Shown here in pieces: positions 2,851 to 64,000 of a stretch of 64,000 bases of DNA. Every line of letters begins with the position of its first letter. Position 1 is the stretch's first letter. The notes below the pieces were generated by a model. That model saw only the letters and a program-made list of their open reading frames with translations, ran no database searches and had not been told where the DNA came from. The translations under genes and the position numbers were made by a program. This DNA is from Eledone cirrhosa (taxonomy: Eukaryota). The stretch lies in NCBI GenBank assembly GCA_964016885.1, contig OZ024757.1, positions 34,162,001 to 34,226,000 of the forward strand, read 5' to 3'.

Positions 2851-2877
2851 ATATATACATACATATATATATATATA

Positions 2878-3015
2878 TAACGAAGTGTGGTAAGGAACCA
2901 GATGGACCATAACGCACCAGAGTACTCAATACTTAGGGTAATAGAGTGGGTAATAGGAAAATGTTTAACCCCGACGGCAGAGCTCAACCCGTTTCGACGG
3001 CTATTTCTGAACTAA
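2878..3015 (-). mobile_element. Family J element (GC-rich hairpin plus GAGTAC tail)
   Basis: Near-identical reverse complement of parts of 5682-5846 and 10209-10364. Abuts (TA)n. Confidence 0.75.
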
Positions 3016-4879
3016 ATTAGAATTTTTAGTGTGGTAATAAATAACCGAACTTTTCAAGCGATAATTCCTTATATGGGAAGATTGTAGTTGTCAAATCCAG
3101 GAATAAGTGTGTGAAGTTTGGTGCAGATGTTAAAGAGCCCCTTTTTTAACAAAGCTGTGATACATATTTCAATGGCAAGTGTTGCTATGTGATTGTTCAA
3201 TCATATGACCAGTCATGCAATATCATTGGACAGTATCCTATGTAATAAAGTTACATTTCCATGGCAATCGAATCTAAAGAAAAGCGAATGGACAAAATTA
3301 TGTTTTCATAGACAAAGATTTCACAAGGGAATGGACTTCTGCTAATGAAACATCATTTCTGTTGATACAACAAAAGATTTTGAAATATTTTTCAAAAAGA
3401 ATTTTCTTTTCAAAAATTCTACAATATATTAACAAAAAGAACTTTTGAATCTGAAATATATTTTGTTCTCTATTTAAGAAGAACTTAAAATAAAAGCCAA
3501 CTCTATGAAATAGCCATTTTTGATTAAAGAAAGAAAAACCCTTTATTGTTTTGTTTTGTTTTGTTATTGTTGTTATTGTTGTTGTTGTTGTTGTTGTTGT
3601 GGTGGTGGAGGTGGTGGTGGTGGTGGTGGTGGTAGTGGTTGATATTGTAATGGGGGTGGGGTGTTGGTGGTGTTGTTATTTGTGGTGGTGGTGATCGTGG
3701 TGTGTGTGTTGATGGTAGTTGTGGTAGTGGTGGTGCGTGTTGACGATGGTGATTTTGGTGGTGTTGGTGGGTGGGGTTTTTTTGTGGCCCCAAAACTAAC
3801 ACTTTACAGAATGTACAGGGTGTATTTTTTCATGACACTAACAATAACACTTTATAGAGTGTGCTGGGTGTAATTTTTCATGACACCAACACTAAAACTT
3901 TACAGAGTGTTCTGGGTACATTTTATTGTTGCACCAACACTAGACAATTTGTTACATACTCATGCAGACCAAAGTCCTCTCAAACCATATGCTGTCTCTA
4001 TTTAATTGTTAACCCCGTAGCAACTAGCCTCTCACTACATTTACTTATAGTGTCACTGTGCTTGTAGAGGAAAGTGGTTCTTTTGTATTATAACAGCACA
4101 AATATATTTACTAATCAAACAAGATTGATAAGAGTGGTAAAGTATGAACCCTTATCCAGGGTAAACACGATAAAAATCCTTGAGAAGATCAAAACAAATA
4201 TGAATCATAATGATTGTCTTGTCTAATAAATGGGCCTGTCACCAGGTTTTGTTCCTCAGGGGCAGGCGAGTGAGATGAGGTGGTGTTGGTGGGGGGGACA
4301 TGCAGAATATTCTAAGACTCTTTCGCAAGTAAATCTTTTATGAACTCCATTTTTGAAATTATTCAAAATTATGGCTGCCGTGCCATCCAGTGGGTCCCCC
4401 TCACCTTACTCATTTGGCACTGGGCCTGCTTATAAATATGCCATGGTATGATCTACTGAATCACACACACACACAAACATTCTTCACTCTGATTGAGCAA
4501 CAAGATTCCAGACTTCATTCGCTTGCCGAGTGGAGTTGACCTCATCAAATACGACCAAGGAAACAATGTTTCTATTGGTCTTTCCATTGCTGATACTATC
4601 ACCATCAATCTGTTGCTGATAGGAAGGGCACCAAGCTGCACTTCATATCTGTTGGGGTCGGAGGGGATCGAGTGGGGTTGGATGGGGTCGGGTAGAGTTG
4701 TGTGGGGTCGGGTGGGTTCGGGTGGGATCGAGTGGAGTTGGGTGGGATCGGTTAGAGTTGTGTGCAGTCGGGTGGGATTAAGTGGGGTCGGGTGGGGTCA
4801 GTGGGGTGGTGCAGAAGGTCAATGGTAATGCTGGTGGTTGCAGTCATGGTAGTAAGAGTTAGAGCATTGTGCAGATGTT

Positions 4880-5618: not shown

Positions 5619-5681
<63 letters not shown>

Positions 5682-5686
<5 letters not shown>

Positions 5687-5846
5687 ATGTTTAACCCCGA
5701 CGGCAGAGCTCAAGCCGTTTCGACGGCTATTTCTGAGCTCTGCCGTCGGGGTCATACCTTTTCCTATTACCCACTCTACTACCCTAAGTATTGAGTACTC
5801 TGGTGCATTATGGTCCATCTGGTTCCTTACCACACCTCCTTCGTTA
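5682..5846 (+). mobile_element. Family J palindromic element
   Basis: accccgacggcagagctca...tgagctctgccgtcggggt hairpin plus a ~90-bp tail, flanked on both sides by (TA)n. Confidence 0.8.
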
Positions 5847-9040: not shown

Positions 9041-9437
9041 TGTAGAAGTTCTATTTAAATTGTTGGTATATAACAAGCAAATATTTTTATAACTGATATA
9101 AAGCACTCAACAAATTATTGGAGTAAAAATACGATATATTAACAAATGGAAACTATATTTATAAAACCATATTTCAAGGACACCAAGTTAAATTATGGTG
9201 TGCTTTCATCAGATAAAATATAATATAGATCAGTTTTATAAATAAATATTGACATACCCGGGAGCTTCCAACAGAAATGGTCGCATTCTTTAAGGGTGTG
9301 TCAATATTTATTTATAAAACTGATCTATATTATATTTTATCTGATGAAAGCACACCATAATTTAACTTGGTGTCCTTGAAATATGTATAATGAAATAAAT
9401 ATGGTTTTATAAATATAGTTTCCATTTGTTAATATAT

Positions 9438-10208: not shown

Positions 10209-10364
10209 ATAGGAACAAGTAAGACCCCGACGGCTGAGCTCAAGCCGTTTCGACGGTCAGCCGTCGGGGTCTTACTTGTTCCTATTACCCACTCTACTAC
10301 CCTAAGTATTGAGTACTTTGGTGCGTTATGGTCCACCTGGTTCCTTACCACTTTTCCTTCGTTA
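10209..10364 (+). mobile_element. Family J palindromic element
   Basis: aggaacaagtaagaccccgacggctga...tcagccgtcggggtcttacttgttcct plus tail. (TA)n on both sides. Confidence 0.8.
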
Positions 10365-14001: not shown

Positions 14002-14072
14002 GTAAGGGAGTACTTTATTATCTGTATGATACTCACACACAGACACACACATATATATATATATATGTATAT

Positions 14073-14360
14073 ACAATATATTAACAAATTTATATTTATA
14101 AAACCATATTTATTTCATTATACATATTTCAAGGACACCAAAGCAAATTATGGTGCGCTTTCATCAGATAAAATATAATATAGATCAGTTTTATAAACAA
14201 ATATTGACATACCCTTATAAAACTGATCTATATTATATTTTATCTGATGAAAGCGCACCAATAATATATGGTTTTATAAATTTTGTTGAGTGCTTTATAT
14301 CAGTTATAAAAATATTTGCTTGTTGTATCCCAACAAATTAAGTATAACTTCTACATATAT
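14073..14360. mobile_element. Family A palindromic hammerhead element (opposite orientation to 9041-9440)
   Basis: Same arms. Tail on the right (ttgagtgctttatatcagttataaaaatatttgcttg). (TA)-rich flanks. Confidence 0.85.
14111..14175 (-). ncRNA. Type I hammerhead ribozyme, family A
   Basis: Minus strand tattttat-CTGATGA-aagcgcacca...tggtgtcctt-GAAA-tatgta-TA-atgaaata. Confidence 0.85.
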
Positions 14361-17200: not shown

Positions 17201-17407
17201 CCCTTTAGCATTTACATTACTCTATATTTATTACTCTATATTCATGGTAAAGGCTTTACCTCACATAATTATCTCACATAATATTAAATCTAAGAAGTTT
17301 ACCTTAACAATACCTTAACATCAGTCTGAGTGGCTGGTTACAGCCAATTTGAACAGAAAGAGTTAAGAGAATTCTGGCTGGGTATGGCCTGTTTAAATGT
17401 TAAAGGG
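17201..17407. mobile_element. piggyBac-like MITE
   Basis: TTAA|CCCTTTAGCATTTA...TAAATGTTAAAGGG|TTAA. Copies at 16908-17107, 49608-49775 and 61199-61419. Confidence 0.75.
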
Positions 17408-17939
17408 TTAAATTGCTAGCTTTGTGTCACATGGTGTGACATGCCGAATCTTCCTGAGAAATACGTTAAAAGTACACGTGTATGTGGTATGCTCAGCCAC
17501 TTGCATGTTAATTTCATGAGCAGGCTGTTCCGTTGTTTGAACAAATGGTACACTCATTGTGAGAACTGTTGGAGGTCCAACACACAGACACAGGACAATT
17601 TAATCAAATAAGCCCATCCTTAAACTGTTGCTTTGTGTCTTTATTATGATGTCAATACAATTTCTTTTGCTGACATCAAAGTTAGTGTATGAGTACTTGT
17701 CTGTGTGTGTATGTATGTGTGTCTGTGTGTGTATGTATGTGTGTGTGTGTGTGTGTGTGGGGGGGTTATGCTGGATAGGCAAGGCTGGAAACTTAAGTCA
17801 CACTAACACAGTGTGGATCATAATAGAGGTGTATATGGTGGCATATAACATGTTTATGTAAAAGAAACATATAAGATTCTGGATATGAATGTTTTAAGCT
17901 GTGATCATATCACAGCTATCTCAGAAGCAGTGTGACAAT

Positions 17940-23719: not shown

Positions 23720-24030
23720 GCACATGGCTTAGTGGTTAGAGCATTGGGCTTGCAATCGAAAGGTTGTGAGTTCAATTCTCAGACCGGGTGATGTGTTGTT
23801 TCCTTGAGCAAGACACTTTATTTCACATTGCTCCAGTTTACTCAGCTGTAGAAATGAGATGATAGGGACTGAGTTCCCTATCATTCCACTGCAAAGTGGT
23901 CGTGGAGGTGCCACGGCAAAAAAGCACCCAGCACTCACTGTAAATGAGGTTGGTGTTAGGAAGGGCATCCAGCTGTAGAAATCAAGCCAGAATCAGTTCC
24001 CGTCCCACCCTTGCAAGCAGGGAAAAGATG
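23720..24030 (+). mobile_element. Full-length tRNA-headed CORE-type SINE
   Basis: tggcttagtggttagagc A box, gagttcaattc B box, CORE-like domain. Related copies at 25160-25490(-), 28405-28525, 32385-32672, 42560-42690(-), 56570-56890 and 62580-62675(-). Confidence 0.85.
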
Positions 24031-25574: not shown

Positions 25575-25632
25575 ATACCTGATGAAATCACCGGATTCAT
25601 ATGGAATCCGGTGATTGAAATGATCATAGTAT
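25575..25632 (+). ncRNA. Type I hammerhead ribozyme with perfect 13-bp stem II, family B
   Basis: atac-CTGATGA-aatcaccggattc[atatg]gaatccggtgatt-GAAA-tgatca-TA-gtat. Palindromic stem III ATGATCAT, AUA site. AATAAA and (TA)n follow. Confidence 0.85.
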
Positions 25633-27521: not shown

Positions 27522-27934
<413 letters not shown>

Positions 27935-31520: not shown

Positions 31521-34500
31521 CTATATAATATATATATACATATAGGTGTGTGTGTGTGTGTGTATGTATACGTGTGCGAATAGATACGTATGTGTGTACA
31601 TGTGTGTGTGTGTGTGTATGTGTATAAACATATAATTGTTTATGTCTGCACCCCATAACCTAGTAGTCTTCTTCTTTGCCCACTTATTCCTCAGAGGGTT
31701 GTGGGAGCAGTCTTCAAACACCCCTATTAGTAGTTCAATAAAAAAAAACAAAAACAATCCTGGTGTCGATATGATGGACTAAATCCCTTCAGAGCAGTGA
31801 CCTAGCATGGCCACAGTCTAATTAAATACTGAAACAAGTAAAAAGAATGAAAGAACAAAAAAATAAAAATGGTGGCACATGGGAATTCTGCCTGCTGTTT
31901 GTTCTGATATCTTGTTTGCAACACCAAGCAGCTCTGAAGTCGAACATAATACTTATATTGTAGATACTAAGTCTTGTATTGGTTTTAAATAACCAGCATT
32001 ACTTTGCAGTTTTTATAGAAGGATTTCAACACAGCTAACACTCTCTGTCTGTTTGAAACTATGAGCTTGTTCATGTTGGTGTTTTGAACACAGAGAAATA
32101 ATAAGGTTCTTGTTTAGTTTGATGGTTAACAACAAGAAACTTGCAGACAACTTAAAGAGATGTCACAAGAATCCTAGTTTCTCTGTTTCTGGCTCCGTGG
32201 TAGTGTGATAGTGTGGTTGTGTGGCATTGTGGTAGTGTGGTATTGTGGTAGTCTGGTACTGTGGTACTTTTACTGTGGTAGTGTGGTATTGTGGCTTTGT
32301 GGTAGTGTGGCATTGTGGTAGTATGGTACAGTAGTACAACTTGTGGTAGTCTGGTACTGTGGTACTTTTACTGTGCTAGTGTGGCTTTGTGGTTAGGGTG
32401 TTCAGCTCACAATCGTAAGGTCGTGAGTTCGATTCCTGGTGGCATGTTGTGTCCTTGATCAAGGCACTTTATTTCATGCTGCTCCAGTCCACTCAGCTGT
32501 AATTCAAAGGGCCAGCCTTGTCACACTCTGTGTCACACTGAATCTCCCTGAGAATTACATTAAGGGTATGCGTGTCTGTGGGAATGCTCAGCCACTTACA
32601 CATTAATTTCACGAGCAGGCTGTTCTGTTGATCACATCGACTGGAACACTCGCCGTAACTGACGGAGTGCCACTATAGTGTGGTACTGTGCTAGTATGGT
32701 ACTGTGCTAGTATGGTACTGTGCTAGTATGGTACTGTGCTAGTATGGTACTGTGTTGTACCACAGTATTATGGTAGTGTGTTGTACCACAGTATTATGGT
32801 AGTGTGTTGTACCAGAGTACTATGGTAGTGTGTTGTACATGTGTGTAGTAGTGGCGCCCACACACATCATTAGCTATTTGAAAAGATGATGGATTTCGCA
32901 ACTGACTGCACCAGGGTTCCTGTTCCTCAGGGAACCACACTATATGGTATACCTGTTGATATAGGTCCAGCCCCTGCTTTCCTGGGTCCTGTTTCTGATC
33001 ATAATCATCTCTAGGGATACGGGAATCAGTAGACGGGACCTGGGGGCAGCGATGGGGGACAGGGAATTCTAGGGCATGAGAGTGAGATCCATCATCTCGA
33101 CAGTAGGCGAAGAATGATGATGATGATGGTACAGAAGTACAACTAATATTATTTGGCAGTATCGGTAGAGGGTCGGACGCCATGCTTTTCAGCATAGAGT
33201 TACGGCCCTTTATGATCTGAGTTCAAAAGCCGCCGAGGTTAACTTTGCCTTTCATCCTTATGGGATCGATAAAATAAAGTACCAGTAATACACTGGGATA
33301 ATTGCTGGCCTTGTGCCAAAAGTAGAAACAATTATTATGATAGTGTGTTGTACCACAGTACTATGGTAGTGTGTTGTACCACAGTACTATGGTACTGTGA
33401 TACAACACACTACCACAGTACTATAGTACAAAAGTACAACTTGTGGTACTGTGTACATTTTCTGAGACAATGACACAATGTTATTGATATGGTCGTTAAA
33501 AATCTCAATTTATGCTACTCCCTGTAGTAATAACAACACACAAAACTCCTTATCAAAGATTAGAAACTGAAACTAATCCTGGTAAAATCAACGACTGTTT
33601 TGTCTTTTTTATCAAAATATTTTCTTTAGGGGTTATGTTTCAATTGTGTTTTTTTTCATTGGACATTTAAACAAAAAATTTCATTTTTTTTTTTTTGTGT
33701 GTTTGTAATTTGTTGTTATTCTAAGAAAGTAACATTTAATCTGATTTTTTTTTTTTATGGGGGTTCTTTTATGTTCTCAGATGTCTTGTGGATCACCACC
33801 GCCGTCTTGTTAATCATCATCATCATCGTCATCATCATCAATGTCATCATCATCATCATCATCCTTATGGTCACCATCATCATCATTATCATCATAATCA
33901 TTGTCATCATCATCATCGTCACTGCCACCACCATACCATCATCATCATCACCACCACCATCATCACCACCACCACCGCCGCCATCATCATCATCGTCACC
34001 ACCACCATCATCATCATCGTCACAGCCACCACCAAACCATTATCATCATCGACACCACCACCACCACCACCATCATGATCGTCACCACCACCAACACGAC
34101 CATACCATCATCGCCATCACCACCACACCACCACCATCACCACACCACCGCCACCACCACCATCATCACCACCATCACTACCATCACCTCCACCACCATC
34201 ATCATCACCGCCACCACCAAACCATCATCATCGTCGCCAGCACCATCACCACCATCACCATCATGATCATCACCATCACCACCATACCATCATGATCGTC
34301 ACCACCACCACCACCACCACCACCATCACCACCATCACCACACCACCATCATCACCACCATCACCACCATCACCACACCACCACCACCATCACCACCACC
34401 ACCATCACCACACCACCATCATCACCATCATCACCACCATCACCACACCACCATCACCACCACCATCACCACACCACCATCATCACCACCATCACCACCA

Positions 34501-37519: not shown

Positions 37520-37670
37520 CTAGTAACAGAGTACTCAATACTTGGGTTAGTTGAGTGCAAACATATTAGAGAGTCATGACCCGACAGCTGAGCTCATGCC
37601 ATTTCGAGAGCAAATTCCAGTCTAGATTTTGCTGTTGAAATGGAAAGAGCTCAGCCATCTGGCCCCTACT
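37520..37670 (-). mobile_element. Divergent family J element
   Basis: cagagtactcaatacttggg...gacccgacagctgagctc...gagctcagcc. Confidence 0.6.
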
Positions 37671-37723
37671 CTAATATATATCATCATATATTTGTATGTA
37701 TGTATATATATATATATATATAT

Positions 37724-51800: not shown

Positions 51801-54455
51801 CCTGTGGCTAATCAACAACAACTACAATATCCTCATCAATCAAGTATTATCAGCACTATCATTATCATCCTCATCATCATCATCATCATCATCATAAATA
51901 TGACCACTATCATCACCATTATCACTACCCCATCACCACTACCACTATCATCCCTATCATCACCACCACCACCACCATCATAACCACTACGACTATCATC
52001 ATCATTATCATCATCACCATCACCATCATAACCACTACGACTATCATCATCATTATCATCATCACCATCACCATCATAACCACTACGACTATCATCATCA
52101 TTATCAACATCATCACCATCACAACCACTACCACTATCATCACCAGTACCACTATCATCACCATTATCAACATCACCATCACCATGGCCATCATCACTAC
52201 CGCTAACATCATCACTCTCATCACCACTACAATCATCACCACCATCATCACTACCCCCATCACCACCATCACCACTACCACTATCACCATCATTATCACC
52301 AACATCACCATTACCACTATTATCTCCGTCATCACCACCACTGCCACCACCACTACCACAAGCAACATCATCCCCATCACCACGGCCATCATCACCATCA
52401 TCCCCGTCATCACCACCACTATCATCATCATCACCCTCATCACCACTACAACCAACACTATCCACCGCTGCCATCACCACCATCACCACCACTATGACTA
52501 TCACCACCATCATCACCATCATCACCACTATGACTATCACCACCATCATCACCATCATCACCATCATCACCACTACCACTATCATCACCATCATCACCAC
52601 TACCACTATCATCACCATCATCACCACTATCATCATCACCACCACCACCATCATCACCACTACCACTATCATCACCATCATCACCATCATCATCACCACT
52701 ATCATCATCACCACCACTATCATCATCATCACCACCACCACCATCATCACCACTACCACTATCATCACCATCATCACCATCATCATCACCACTATCATCA
52801 TCACCACCACTATCATCATCACCACCACCACCATCATCACCACTGCCACTATCATCACCATCATCACCATCATCACCACTATCATCATCACCACCACCAC
52901 CACCATCATCACCACTGCCACTATCATCACCATCATCACCATCACCACCACTATCATCATCACCACCACCACCATCATCACCACTGCCACTATCATCACC
53001 ATCATCACCATCATCACCACTATCATCATCACCACCACCACCATCATCACTATCATCACCATCATCACCACTATCATCATCACCACCACTATCATCATCA
53101 CCACCACTATCATCATCACCACCACTATCATCATCACCACCACCACCATCATCACCACTACCACCATCATCACCATCATCACCATCATCACCACCACCAC
53201 CACCACCATCATCACCACTACCACCATCATCACCATCATCACCACCACCACCATCATCATAAATACACTCAGCCCCATCATCACTACAATCATAATTAAG
53301 AATTTGAAGACATTTATTTATATAACTAGCTTTCTAATGATTTGTCTGGTGTTAGGTCAATAAACTGGCAGAATTGGTAGAGCTTCGGATAAAATACTAT
53401 TGTGGTATTTGTCCTGACTCTTTATGTTCTGAGTACAAATCTTACCAATGTCAACTTTACATTTTATTCTTCCAGGGTTTATAAAATAAAGAACCAGTAA
53501 TAAATTGGGGTTGATAAAATTGCTGGCCTTGTGCCTAAATTAGAAATCATTATTAATCTGTTGTCTGGAATATAGTTTAATAAAAGTTCTCACATAGAAT
53601 TATGATGGAAGGTCAGCTCTATATCACAGAACCAAAGGCAGTTTCAGGTAATTTGGTATCAAAAGGGTTTGGTTGGTGTTTGGAACATAACTTAACAAAG
53701 GTTCTTACATAAAATTATGATGGAAGGTCAGCTCTATATCATAAAACCAAGAACAGTTTCAGGCAGTTTGGTATCAAAAGGGTTAGATTGATGTTTGGAA
53801 CATACCTTACAGGTTCTTACATAAAATCATGATAGAATGTTCTTTTTGTTAACTATAAACGTTTTAAAATGAATACATTTGTATCATAGAACTAGGGATA
53901 GTTTGGTATCAAAAGGCTTAAGGAATTTAACAATTTTGAATTTCAAAAAGAGAGACAATAACAACATCAGCAAAATAAAATTATTTCCACATTAGCCAAT
54001 CCCTAATGAATATTCATGTAAATTATCGTTAAACTTTAGCATCTTAAAAGAGCAAATTTTGTAACATCTGTTGTCCTGTAACATTATATTAACATTTTAC
54101 TTGATCGAACTCTAGATTGTACAGGGTGGGGAATGGAATTTTTTAAATCCTTTTATTCTTTTACTGATTTCAATCTCTAGATTGTGGCCATGCTGGAGCA
54201 CCACTTTGATTTAATCAAACATATCAAATTCAGTACTTATTTGTTTTCAAGTATGTTGCACAAATGCAAACATAGATGTGGGCATACAAACACACACACA
54301 CACATGTATATGTACCTATATATATATAGATAGATACAAACACATACATATATATATATGTTTATATATGTATATATATATATATATATATCGTCATCAT
54401 CATTTAACGTCCTCTTTTCCTGCTAGCAAGGGTTATATATATCTATATAAAAATG

Positions 54456-54605
54456 AATATAGAAATGCTTCTACAGGACTAGAACTGTTTCCTTCAAATG
54501 AAACAGTTCTAGTCCTGTAGAAGCCATTTCTATATTAAATTTTGTATATACTTTACTAATGTATTGAGTACCTTACTTACTATGGTTACCCCAATTGAAC
54601 CTGAG
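54456..54605 (+). mobile_element. Family F palindromic element
   Basis: Near-perfect hairpin 54456-54536 (ttctacaggactagaactgtttc / gaaacagttctagtcctgtagaa) plus a tail with TGAGTAC that ends at (CA)n. Confidence 0.75.
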
Positions 54606-54664
<59 letters not shown>

Positions 54665-54799
54665 CAAAAGGGATATTTAATTTGTTGTTAATTCAACAAA
54701 TATATATGTTTATAACTGATTCGAAGCACTCGACGGGTTTTCTGGAGTATAATATCAATGATATTAAATAAATGGAAACTATATTTATAAAACCATATT

Positions 54800-54860
54800 T
54801 ATTCTATTATATATATTTCAAGGATACCAAAACTTTGGTACGCTTTCATCAGATAAAATA
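54800..54860 (-). ncRNA. Type I hammerhead ribozyme, family A (left arm)
   Basis: Minus strand tattttat-CTGATGA-aagcgtaccaaagttttggtatcctt-GAAA-tatata-TA-atagaata. Confidence 0.85.
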
Positions 54861-54983
54861 CAAAGTTTGTTTTATAAATATTGACATATCCAGGAACGAG
54901 ATCTTAACGGTTCAAGTTTTTCCTGGATATGAACCGTTAAGATCTTCTTCCTGGATATGTCAATATTTATAAAACAAACTTTG

Positions 54984-55044
54984 TATTTTATCTGATGAGA
55001 GCATACCAAAGTTTTGGTACCCTTGAAATATATATAATAGAATA
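54984..55044 (+). ncRNA. Type I hammerhead ribozyme, family A (right arm)
   Basis: tattttat-CTGATGA-gagcataccaaagttttggtaccctt-GAAA-tatata-TA-atagaata. Confidence 0.8.
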
Positions 55045-55086
55045 AATATGGTTTTATAAATATAGTTTCCATTTATTTAATATCAT

Positions 55087-55126
<40 letters not shown>

Positions 55127-55128
<2 letters not shown>

Positions 55129-55590
55129 TGGCTGCAAACTCTCATAAAAGTATTGCAATCGCTTGTCAGATTCAGATGTGTGATGCTCGGATATGGCTTT
55201 CCAGGCCTGCTAGAGACTTGCACTTCTTCTCACATTGACGACAACTATGAATCTCCCTGGCCTCAGGTCTTGCATCAGGTTGCCTGTGAACCTTCACAAA
55301 GCTGTGGAGATCATAGTTCACTGGTTCTCTTTGAACATGGCTGCGACTGTGGCTCCTGAGACCAGATTTGCTCAAGCAAATTTTTCCACACTCAAAGCAC
55401 TTCAATTCAATGGAGACACCGATTATTTTGAGAGATACACCAGGGCATTGCTTTTGCACATCCCGTTTGATCTTCTTAGGCTCTATGCGTCTGTCCTCAA
55501 AATTATGGACCCCATCATTCACCATTCCATGCCAAGTTTCTCTTTCAAGAGCCCTCTATCTCCCAGTCAGCCACCATCAAACCAGTTTGA
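55127..55590 (-). pseudogene. RTE/BovB-like LINE C-terminal remnant with two C2H2 zinc fingers
   Basis: MVNDGVHNFEDRR...CFECGKICLSKSGLRSHSRSH...CRQCEKKCKSLAGLESHIRASH. Confidence 0.75.
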
Positions 55591-56899: not shown

Positions 56900-57069
56900 A
56901 GGTAATTCCGAAGAAAAAGCAAAGGAAAAAAGAGTGCTCTATGTATAGAACAGAGCTATTTAATTAGAAAGTGAACAACACAATATATAACTACTCCATT
57001 ACCAAAGGTTTCAGGATCCCAGACAATATTAATATACGCCTGGAGTTATATATTGTGTTGTTCACTTTC

Positions 57070-57075
<6 letters not shown>
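56900..57075. mobile_element. Palindromic element with decayed hammerhead-like loop (family I)
   Basis: Arms taattagaaagtgaacaacacaatatataact / agttatatattgtgttgttcactttctaatta. The loop on the minus strand reads CTGGGA-tcct-GAAA-cctttgg-TA. Confidence 0.5.
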
Positions 57076-57114
<39 letters not shown>

Positions 57115-57115
<1 letters not shown>

Positions 57116-57181
57116 AAAGTTGGGACCTGACGGCTGAGCTCTGGAACTAGCTGTTGAAACAGCAAGAACTCAGCCGTCAGG
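57115..57181 (+). mobile_element. Truncated family J hairpin
   Basis: ctgacggctgag...ctcagccgtcag, immediately after (TA)n. Confidence 0.55.
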
Positions 57182-57610
57182 GAGATTCAGTTAGGCAGAG
57201 TATGTGAGGCTGGCTCTTTGAATTACAAGTACAGTTCATTGTATATTATAGTATAAGTGGCTGAGCATTTGACTGATATGTGTAGTGTACTCTTATAGTA
57301 GTTCTCAGGGAGATTCAGTGTGACACAGTATGTGAAAAGTCTGGCACTTTGAATTATAGGTACAGTCTATCTTGTATTACAGTGTAAGTGGTTGAGTATT
57401 ACACAGACAGATGTACTCTTAATGGAATTCTCAGGGAGATTCAGCCACACATTGTGTAAAAAAGCTGGCTCTTTGAATTACAGGTATAGTTCATTGTGTA
57501 TTGTAGTGTAAGTAGTTGAGCATTCCACAGACATATGTACCCATAATGGAATTCTCAGGGAGATTCAGCAAAACATGGTGTCTGACAATACAGGACCTTT
57601 GAATTACTGG
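57178..57610 (-). repeat. ~126-bp tandem repeat x3.5 derived from a CORE-SINE tail
   Basis: cagggagattcag...ctttgaatta...gtaagtggctgagcatt. Reverse complement of 32500-32600. Confidence 0.8.
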
Positions 57611-61907: not shown

Positions 61908-63009
61908 ATCATCATCATCATTTAACATCTGCTTTCCCTGTTAGCGAGGGTTGGATGGAAGTGGGGCTACTGACCTCCCAGACGGGCTGAGGGATCTGTA
62001 TCCCGCTTATGTATGGTTATATCAAGAGCAGAGGAAAAGTTGTCAAGTCTTTTAATACACTGATGGGTCCTTCTAACCCCTAGTTTGACAAGCTTTCTAT
62101 GGTTGGATGTCCTTTCTAACACCAACCATTTTACAGCATGTACTAGGTGCTTTCATTGACATAACTAAAAATGTCATTGCCTCAAAAAACCCTGTTTAAC
62201 TTATGCCAGTATGGAAAAGTCAATATAAAACTAGGATGATGATATACATACATATATACATACATACATCCTTCCATCCATCTATCTATCCCTCTTATAT
62301 ACCAGATATACCATATCTCTATCTAAGGACCGCTGTCCACTCTACCATACACTATGAGGTGTCAGGTGACAATCTGCTGGACATGTACTCGCTGTCTCTC
62401 CCACTGTTTTTATCTCCCCCCCTCTTTCTCCCCACTCTCTATGGTCCTGTATGCTTTTGGTGGTGGTGGGGAGATTAATCGACAAAATCCGGGACCAAGG
62501 AAACAATGTTTCCATTTGTCTTTCCATTGTTGATACTATCTACCAGAAGGAAGATAGTATCACAACTCCTAGCAGAAGGAGCAATGTGAAATAAAGTGTC
62601 TTTCTTACCCAAGGGTGAATTGAACTCACAACTTCATGATTGCTAATCCACTTCTCTAACCACTAAGCTACATGCTTTATATCTACTGTTCTATTATTGT
62701 TATTCCTACTGTTGTCCTTTGCTGATGTCTCCTTTCCTTTACTTGATGTAAACCTCACTCTATTATTAAGGGCGGTGGGTTGGCAGTATTGGTAGAGGGT
62801 CAGACGCTATGCTTTGTAGTGTAGAGTTATGGCCCTTTATCTTCTGAGTTCAAATCCTGCCGAGTTAAATTTGCTTTTTATCCTTATGGGGTTGATAAAA
62901 TAAAGTACCAGTCACACACTGGGGTCGATTTAATCGACTTTCCCTTCCCCAAATATTGCTGGCCTTGTGCCTATAATAGAAATCATTATTATTCTTATTA
63001 TTTCCTCAG

Positions 63010-63138
63010 ATATAAAGTTGATTTGGGACATGAAGGTCAATGCTGGACCATTTATCGACGTTACAAACATTTCCGCAGTCTTCATGAGCAGCTCATGTTG
63101 TTCTTGGCTGGCATTCGACTTCCCGTTCCAACAAGACA
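63010..63138 (+). CDS. PLD1: Phospholipase D1/2 homolog exon, PX domain (LYKVDLGHEGQCWTIYRRYKHFRSLHEQLMLFLAGIRLPVPTR)
   Basis: Acceptor tttcctcag|, donor CA|gtgagt, 129 nt. The phase-2 start completes TT+A=Leu from the previous exon. Matches PLD1 [43 protein letters not shown]. The gene continues beyond the window. Confidence 0.92.
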
Positions 63139-64000
63139 GTGAGTATGTTTTCTATATATAATCAATATCCTTCATTAGCTGTTTGCCAGAGAAAAAACTG
63201 GCCATTTAAAAATTTGGGTGGAAAATGGAAAGAAAATTCCACTTTGGTACGGCCAAAACGCCTGTCCCATGAGGGTTACTAAAAAGATATTTTTTGAGCA
63301 GATAGAACAGCCTAAATAATTGGTTGTGTCAAAATTTTGTTACGATTGTTGCTAAAGTAGAAACAAAATTTAAAAGACTTACCAGTGGCAAAGATAGCCT
63401 GGCATTGTTTTGTTTTTTGTTACATTTAATTTCCTGTTTCAATAACTGACTAATCCTGGAATATTATCATGTCATTACCTGGTGGGTCCAGATAGAATGA
63501 CAGATGAGAAGATGCAAAAAAGACATCTGTACATTATGAACTTGGAACAGATTTTAACACTTTCTAAAAAGTTATTTTCCCATATTTATCAGTTACACAA
63601 GATAACTGTCTCGGGATATGCAATCTTTGTACATCCATCCCATACCTCCCAGGACAGGTAGCTGACCCATCACCAGTTTTTATGGCATGAAATGGAGATT
63701 GCAGTATATCTTTTGAACAGGCCAGTAATGCGCTGGAGTAATTGCTGGCCTTGTGCCAAAAGTAGAAACAATTATTTTTTTAAAAGTGGTGTGGCAAAGA
63801 GCAAAACAAAGTTCAGTAGAGTAAGTTTGATGGGAAACTAGAGATTGCCAACAATTTTGGGTGATTGTTTGGTGGGGCTGAACAGTTGACCTTTTTTCAA
63901 TATAACTTAATGTTAGATTACTGTAAAGGCAGATGTGGCATTTCAAATATCAGCCCATAATACTCAGCAGCCTGGTAGAAACTCCAGTTTGCCTTTTGTC

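Follow-up and report, generated by a model that had tools for sequence, protein, structure and literature searches.

Family J very probably represents the terminal repeat (pLTR) and tail belonging to a Penelope-like retroelement (PLE) that carries a type I hammerhead ribozyme with a U3-A8 core. Its five loci lie at 2879, 5682, 10209, 37520 and 57115 of the window, i.e., the whole 64-kb stretch of DNA analysed; all five were confirmed in the sequence and are mutually related. The core had looked strange because most copies lost the first half of the hammerhead: four of the five are folded back, and their first half-core is missing because 5' truncation falls inside stem II. The apparent new catalytic core disappears, and a testable hammerhead takes its place. 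Among the possibilities raised by the initial annotation, a variant hammerhead core does exist (U3-A8), but its location and nature were misjudged; a different small structured RNA finds no support for the master element, and a ribozyme-less lineage is likewise unsupported for the master but describes the truncated copies, which are ribozyme-incomplete.

Hammerhead anatomy and the choice of register

As read from its letters, the longest copy (2879..3094, minus strand) is the only one in the window that holds a complete type I hammerhead, in U3-A8 form and decayed. On the minus strand, the 5' strand of stem I (3058..3062) pairs with 2972-2968, giving 5 Watson-Crick pairs in majority letters, of which this copy has one as a mismatch and another as G-U. 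The first half-core follows (UUGAAAA, 3051..3057), read as U3 U4 G5 A6 N7 A8 A9, in which a U3-A8 covariant replaces C3-G8. Stem II spans 55 nt (2996..3050), is closed by G10.1 (3050) and C11.1 (2996), and contains a 9-bp helix (3047-3039 with 3006-2998) that encloses a hairpin (3030-3025 with 3016-3011). The second half (2973..2995) comprises G12 A13 A14 A15.1 (2995-2992), stem III, U16.1 (2974) and the GUC triplet (2975-2973); stem III pairs 2992-2987 with 2974-2979 over 5-6 bp, and its loop is the palindromic GAGCUC. The predicted cut lies between 2973 and 2972, ahead of the stem I 3' strand (2972-2968), and the tail motif GTATTGAGTAC (2922..2932) is found 40 nt past it. By majority letters, stems I, II (with G10.1-C11.1) and III thus have 5, 1+9 and 5-6 bp, the complete set being present in one of five copies.

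The initial annotation had CUGANGA replaced by C(U/A)G(G/A)AAY, with CAGAAAT at the CUGANGA position. In the longest copy this 7-mer (3009-3003) is instead part of the stem II 3' strand, and the first half-core, UUGANAA at 3057-3051, lies ~48 nt upstream of the assumed core position and was lost from the other four copies by truncation. The canonical CUGANGA with C3-G8 is absent here, the window copy reading UUGAAAA; a Watson-Crick 3-8 pair with U4 G5 A6 and A9 is present at 3057-3051. The gagctc helix described as stem-I-like is the palindromic stem III loop plus the fold-back junction. The claim that GAAA is kept at a hammerhead position was correct, and GAAA (G12-A15.1), A15.1-U16.1 and C17 are conserved in all six arms that cover them, with a GUC triplet in five and AUC in one.

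A second family in the window fixes the register of J without J's own core, through its layout and spacing. In this sister family (2684-2845, 27575-27750 and 54440-54600), the type I hammerhead has a canonical CUGAUGA (at 27676 and 27719), a 12-nt stem II, GAAA, a stem III of 4 bp whose loop centre is palindromic, and GUA as its triplet; the tail motif is that of J. The predicted cut and the tail motif are separated by 40 and 41 nt in J copies and by 41 and 43 nt in sister ones, the cut in sister copy 2686 being placed by homology because the GAAA matched there sits on the inverted arm. In sister copy 54500, CUGAUGA is absent from both arms and the junction falls within stem II, as in four J copies. 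Thus, the sister family shares with J the palindromic stem III loop centre, the tail motif, fold-back insertions and one stem II-truncated copy, and differs from it in its C3-G8 core, short stem II and GUA triplet. Sister copy 2684 faces J copy 2879 across one shared (TA)n tract.

Across both strands of the window, a descriptor for type I hammerheads whose stem III is large matched a single site, copy 2879-3094, where the stem II run is 9 bp. None of 40 local dinucleotide shuffles matched when a 9-bp stem II run was required, and the mean was 0.15 matches per shuffle at the looser 5-bp cut-off; the descriptor and pair tests are not blind, since both were composed with the sequence and the read table already seen. 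Folding of this decayed copy gives z = -0.20, and the hammerhead fold reaches -13.0 versus -19.3 for the MFE structure, which retains stem II and loses stems I and III. Rfam matched no hammerhead model on 2860-3140, where its three matches are all chance, and gave no hammerhead or other credible family in the whole window among the 150 of 197 matches listed; the canonical hammerhead neighbours are likewise unmatched among those listed.

Other readings of the same letters were rejected by eye. A type III reading with GAAA at 3055 has no core after the long helix, and the register of the initial annotation lacks U16.1. The AGAAAUA string resembles the loop B motif of the hairpin ribozyme, and no partner strand was seen for it. 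A second half-core, UUGACAA, lies 37 nt upstream of the real one (3065-3094 region); as a core, the string at 3094-3088 has no G10.1 and a poor stem I.

It is very improbable that C(U/A)G(G/A)AAY forms a non-canonical half-core, or that J encodes a different RNA built on the GCCGU-CGAA-ACGGC hairpin, and this model is already largely refuted. The hairpin can indeed form, as had been proposed: it pairs 86.7% of cells versus 77.8% for stem III, and in the 5682 arm its stability is comparable (-8.0 vs -7.2 kcal/mol). Against it, the 7-mer differs without constraint from arm to arm, its partner in the single long copy is 3047-3039, and the base following the supposed stem is U, U, A, A and A in five arms, so U16.1 is not kept in that register. 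No Rfam family fits. Covariation favours neither helix with 8 arms only: of 500 shuffles, 265 equal the score of stem III, 436 its pairing and 258 the covariation of the hairpin. Each helix shows a single two-sided change, and both of its sides are CpG-type, as are 11 of the 32 differences among arms; the apparent compensatory changes, those of the hairpin included, were dismissed as CpG decay.

The two helices could also be alternative states of one RNA. The 8-mer AGCCGUCG is present twice at a distance of 23 nt, once where stem II ends and once from the last part of stem III across the cut site, and CGGCU likewise has two occurrences; therefore, numbering these segments along the RNA, it can pair 1:2 plus 3:4, or 2:3. 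A switchable hammerhead, active with 1:2 plus 3:4 and inactive with 2:3, where GAAA is buried in the hairpin, perhaps combined with completion in trans, is an unlikely proposal. If true, the switch could leave the template uncut during reverse transcription. The lengths of stem II (9 bp) and stem I (5 bp) suffice to make trans completion conceivable, and the many intronic half-ribozyme copies might then be completed by the first half of an intact transcript, which would amount to a natural split hammerhead acting on host pre-mRNA.

Sequencing reads and the state of the master element

Family J is a very high-copy family and not a chance similarity. When four of nine listed public runs (X1, X5, X6 and X7) were compared with window positions 2870-3130 at 80% likeness, matches came from 18,561 contigs in X1, 21,851 reads in X7, 45 contigs in X5 and 21 in X6. 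In each of the four runs depth continues as far as 3094, and three organisms have single contigs that cover ~2961-2970 through 3094, joining both hammerhead halves (X1 record 8, X5 record 15 and X6 record 23). The part upstream of the core position assumed earlier is therefore native element. Relatives extend beyond 3094, as seen in X5 and X6, so copy 2879-3094 is itself 5'-truncated. Two X7 reads join 3094 back to 3065 and depth is higher at 3068-3094, which suggests a ~38-nt unit in tandem upstream of the J half-core.

The majority letters repair the window copy. At 3059, 3061, 3044 and 2988 they make up 0.97-0.99 of X1 depth and 0.80-0.98 of X7 reads, and they turn two mismatches and two G-U pairs in stems I, II and III into Watson-Crick pairs; the flaws at these positions are private to copy 2879-3094. 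Other majority or frequent letters weaken the fold: at 3004, 39% of X1 depth carries a variant that disrupts a stem II pair; at 3030, the majority letter reduces an inner stem II pair to G-U; and most X1 depth has U-U as the last pair of stem III. This evidence covers the variants listed, 31 further ones standing outside that list.

The majority core is U3-A8 and not CUGANGA, since G8 stays below 4% in X1 by the tally of changes by kind. The initial annotation had considered that a consensus might restore CUGANGA; the reads restore it in neither register. Just one T>C place (3030) and one A>T place (2979) reach 4% in X1, and both fall outside the sites that the earlier register or a C3-G8 core would need. 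N7 (3053) alone among the listed core positions shows two other letters, each at ~4% of X1 depth and in 57 and 95 of 286 X7 reads with few start points, one of them being dominant in X5. C at position 3 accounts for 3% of X1 depth and 62 of 287 X7 reads, with no sign of an accompanying G8; its frequencies match the change at 3053. C3 seems to be accompanied by A8 and by G at 3053, giving a C3-A8 mismatch in the standard register or a C-G pair in a register without N7. The other N7 variant is compatible with the standard register only.

From this anatomy, an intact master RNA would most likely self-cleave at GUC, slowly, and we regard such activity as somewhat more probable than its absence; because stem III is stable, cleavage may possibly proceed as a monomer. 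A dead relic is the less probable reading: the amplified lineage would spread without cleavage, and U3-A8 would merely be inherited from a once-active master. It shares its anatomy with the preferred reading, and only activity differs. The scarcity of complete copies fits a relic, as the first half-core is reached by ~1.5% of X1 core depth (40,486 vs 2,680,920) and 2.6% of X7 reads (293 vs 11,198), both lower bounds and X7 being a reduced-representation library. Copies also pass uncut through the GUC site, a C3-A8 variant and a rival hairpin covering GAAA exist, and the available text on the PLE PAc reports that insertion in vitro dispenses with cleavage (PMC11167929). Against a relic, the majority letters keep all core positions and the three stems intact, N7 being the variable core position, and the joined halves are present in three organisms. 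Family J provides a natural test of whether Penelope-type hammerheads need cleavage in vivo.

Truncated fold-back copies and a proposed route of insertion

Copies differ mainly in where they end. Fold-back hairpins of -33 to -71 kcal/mol make up four of the five, with junctions and arm lengths that vary from copy to copy; the hairpin family of the initial annotation thus stands with all five loci, except that 2879-3094 has no inverted arm and runs as native element ~85 nt upstream of the supposed core. The apical strings quoted there were all found in the sequence, and the tail motif is present in four copies, as had been claimed, and missing from 57115. Copies 2879, 5682 and 10209 share 84-96% identity across aligned parts, which loosely supports the suggestion of recent activity; 37520 and 57115 match at 72-89% and 77-89%, both across short stretches.

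Copy 5682..5846 (plus strand) is a fold-back insertion amid (TA)n tracts in which a short inverted arm is joined to a long arm with tail, both 5'-truncated. The short arm (5679..5735, minus strand; offsets set by hand from the 2879 copy) lacks the first half-core and carries part of the stem II 3' strand (5735-5729, the CAGAAAT discussed above), G12-A15.1 (5721-5718) followed by stem III, and GUC (5701-5699) followed by the stem I 3' strand. The long arm (5735..5841, plus strand) begins inside the stem III loop palindrome, carries GUC at 5745-5747 and the tail motif at 5788-5798, and has its 3' end at (TA)n. The target tract, (TA)n adjoining (CA)n, lies at 5653..5682. Copy 10209..10364 (plus strand), also folded back amid (TA)n tracts, has a short arm in which stem III pairs 6/6 and the first half-core is absent. 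Copy 37520..37680 (minus strand) is more diverged, with stem II truncating both arms and 41 nt from predicted cut to tail motif, and 57115..57182 (plus strand) is short, diverged and without tail, adjoining (TA)n and a SINE-like repeat.

The reads agree with this layout. X1 depth falls from 2.68 million (2987-2995) to 1.12 million (3005-3013), 0.33 million (3014-3022) and 0.02-0.04 million at 3032-3058 (0.04 million at 3050-3058), although depth does not equal copy number and upstream parts that have diverged may go undetected. Of 28 joints, 15 are listed; most of these link opposite strands and have one end at 3000-3013. The 5' ends and inversion joints cluster in the stem II 3' strand. Loose ends running into (TA)n gather at 2882-2885 and at 2953, which gives two preferred 3' ends.

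Penelope-type architecture, as first proposed, is borne out by the 5'-truncated copies with an adjacent inverted truncated copy at four of the five loci, with which the opposite-strand joints in the reads agree, and by a hammerhead that sits in the terminal repeat segment. In the insertion route that we propose, a Penelope-type RT/GIY-YIG protein, supplied in trans by an unseen partner, would nick (TA)n, and reverse transcription would be primed at either of two internal sites ~70-75 nt apart. Uncleaved RNA would be copied through the GUC site, and copying would usually stop or switch template within the long stem II. The outcome would be short inverted-plus-direct pairs that hold only the 3' half of the ribozyme, 5682-5846 among them. 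PLE insertions are described as truncated at the 5' end and biased towards microsatellites/(TA)n, with an inverted copy alongside and sometimes a tail (PMC8557442), and PAc is described as using two internal RT start sites and an uncleaved template, with a hammerhead that requires the 3-8 pair (PMC11167929), in the parts of these sources available. The two (TA)n-joined 3' ends of J, at ~2882 and ~2953, are ~70-75 nt apart versus a reported tail of 30-40 bp. Family J could also serve to test whether long RNA helices determine the truncation and inversion points of such elements.

It is improbable that J is a non-LTR retrozyme, with tandem units and an intermediate of circular RNA, or else a fold-back DNA element of MITE type. 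In favour of this reading stand the short units and the lack of a linked ORF in the window, and the available text of bioRxiv 10.64898/2026.07.22.740005 proposes that retrozymes originate in PLE pLTRs and are often monomers. Yet no head-to-tail array was found at any of the five loci among the 150 of 161 tandem-repeat matches listed for the window. Each copy has its own arm lengths and junctions; its inverted repeat is therefore made at insertion, unlike a fixed terminal repeat, and relatives extend upstream of 3094.

No RT or GIY-YIG match was found in the 6 ORFs scanned of 132 in the window. Two weak C2H2 zinc-finger matches at 55172-55555 (minus strand), below Pfam cut-offs, probably mark a decayed LINE 3' end. 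Pattern scans found nothing in viral or genome contigs (0 each); the two loci in metagenome contigs, in GC-rich fungal-like coding sequence with no further similarity to the window, were rejected as chance. The window looks like intronic animal DNA because of its 37% GC, its many microsatellites and a PX-domain exon near 63,000, and its repeat features appear cephalopod-like. The reading frame at 62825-63142 contains a PX domain start (Pfam E 2.4e-05) and is probably a host-gene exon, which may be phospholipase D-like.

Comparison with known systems and neighbouring elements

Each individual feature of family J is already known. U3-A8 is found in ~1,300 PLE-related hammerhead motifs of S. mansoni (PMC4209133), and the covariant is described as active in vitro (PMC3088659), according to the available parts of both sources. 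The Cercyon PLE hammerheads of S. mansoni resemble J in being type I, with U3-A8, a short stem I and a longer-than-usual stem II, and their copies, too, are mostly solo and truncated, some closely spaced on opposite strands. In contrast, Cercyon motifs are minimal in the text available (PMC4209133), with helix III absent, a helix II of 7-8 bp and an extra base between A9 and 10.1, whereas stem II of J spans 55 nt, its stem III counts 5-6 bp, and the extra base is missing in the standard register. The PLE hammerheads of fungi and protists with a large helix III share with J a stable helix III that should permit monomeric folding, and the Serpula motif cleaves as a monomer; the large-helix-III forms are reported there from telomere-associated, endonuclease-lacking PLEs (PMC4209133), whereas J is animal, interstitial, (TA)n-targeted and U3-A8.

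The endonuclease-containing (EN+) PLEs Poseidon PAc (PMC11167929) and Hydra/Naiad (PMC8557442) show, in the sections available, the same 5' truncation with an adjacent inverted truncated copy, an AT-rich or microsatellite target, and copying of uncleaved RNA. Their optional tail from two RT starts measures 30-40 nt, against a putative tail of ~70-75 nt in J, for which no ORF was seen. Naiads are described in the same part of that source as lacking canonical hammerheads (PMC8557442). Animal non-LTR retrozymes are likewise non-coding, with a type I hammerhead and probable PLE dependence (PMC7229834; bioRxiv 10.64898/2026.07.22.740005, available portions), but form head-to-tail arrays with a complete hammerhead per unit, whereas J copies are inverted, truncated half-ribozymes. 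PMC6155905, available in part, is a further source for comparison.

In the literature searched, no animal was found to combine a majority U3-A8 core with a 55-nt stem II and a 5-6 bp stem III, and no publication on cephalopod PLE hammerheads was found in a search that left most subscription journals, Repbase and Dfam outside; supplementary alignments of PMC4209133, PMC3088659 and PMC8557442 may contain similar motifs. J differs from known U3-A8 PLEs in its very long stem II, its stable stem III and a repeated segment that permits the rival fold. Usually a minority form, U3-A8 predominates here in an animal family of very high abundance. Stem II of J is far longer than published descriptors would be expected to allow. 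Standard searches would miss J twice, through the CUGANGA string and through the absence of the first half from most copies. Dimeric PLE hammerhead variants have reportedly been the subject of an RNA Biology paper.

Several other short elements of the window carry CUGAUGA cores in fold-back insertions adjoining (TA)n. An AT-rich family (9168-9385, 14070-14290 and 54752-55092) has CUGAUGA hammerheads on both arms, with inverted repeats of 92 and 163 bp, a stem II of 26-30 nt and a short palindromic stem III. Solo CUGAUGA...GAAA motifs lie near (TA)n at 25579, 45791 (minus), 56406 (minus) and 5887; those at 25579 and 45791 satisfy a minimal-hammerhead descriptor. A second U3-A8 match to that descriptor, in AT-rich sequence at 3413 (minus), is probably chance, as the descriptor yields 0.33 matches per shuffled window. 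The fold-back element at 56961-57075 adjoins (TA)n and has no recognisable hammerhead core. A SINE-like repeat (57177-57568), with a ~126-bp unit in tandem, directly follows the 57115 copy and has dispersed relatives at 32420-32680 and 17330-17560. A tRNA-like Rfam match at 23725-23782 (31.2 bits against a gathering score of 29) is probably the head of a tRNA-derived SINE.
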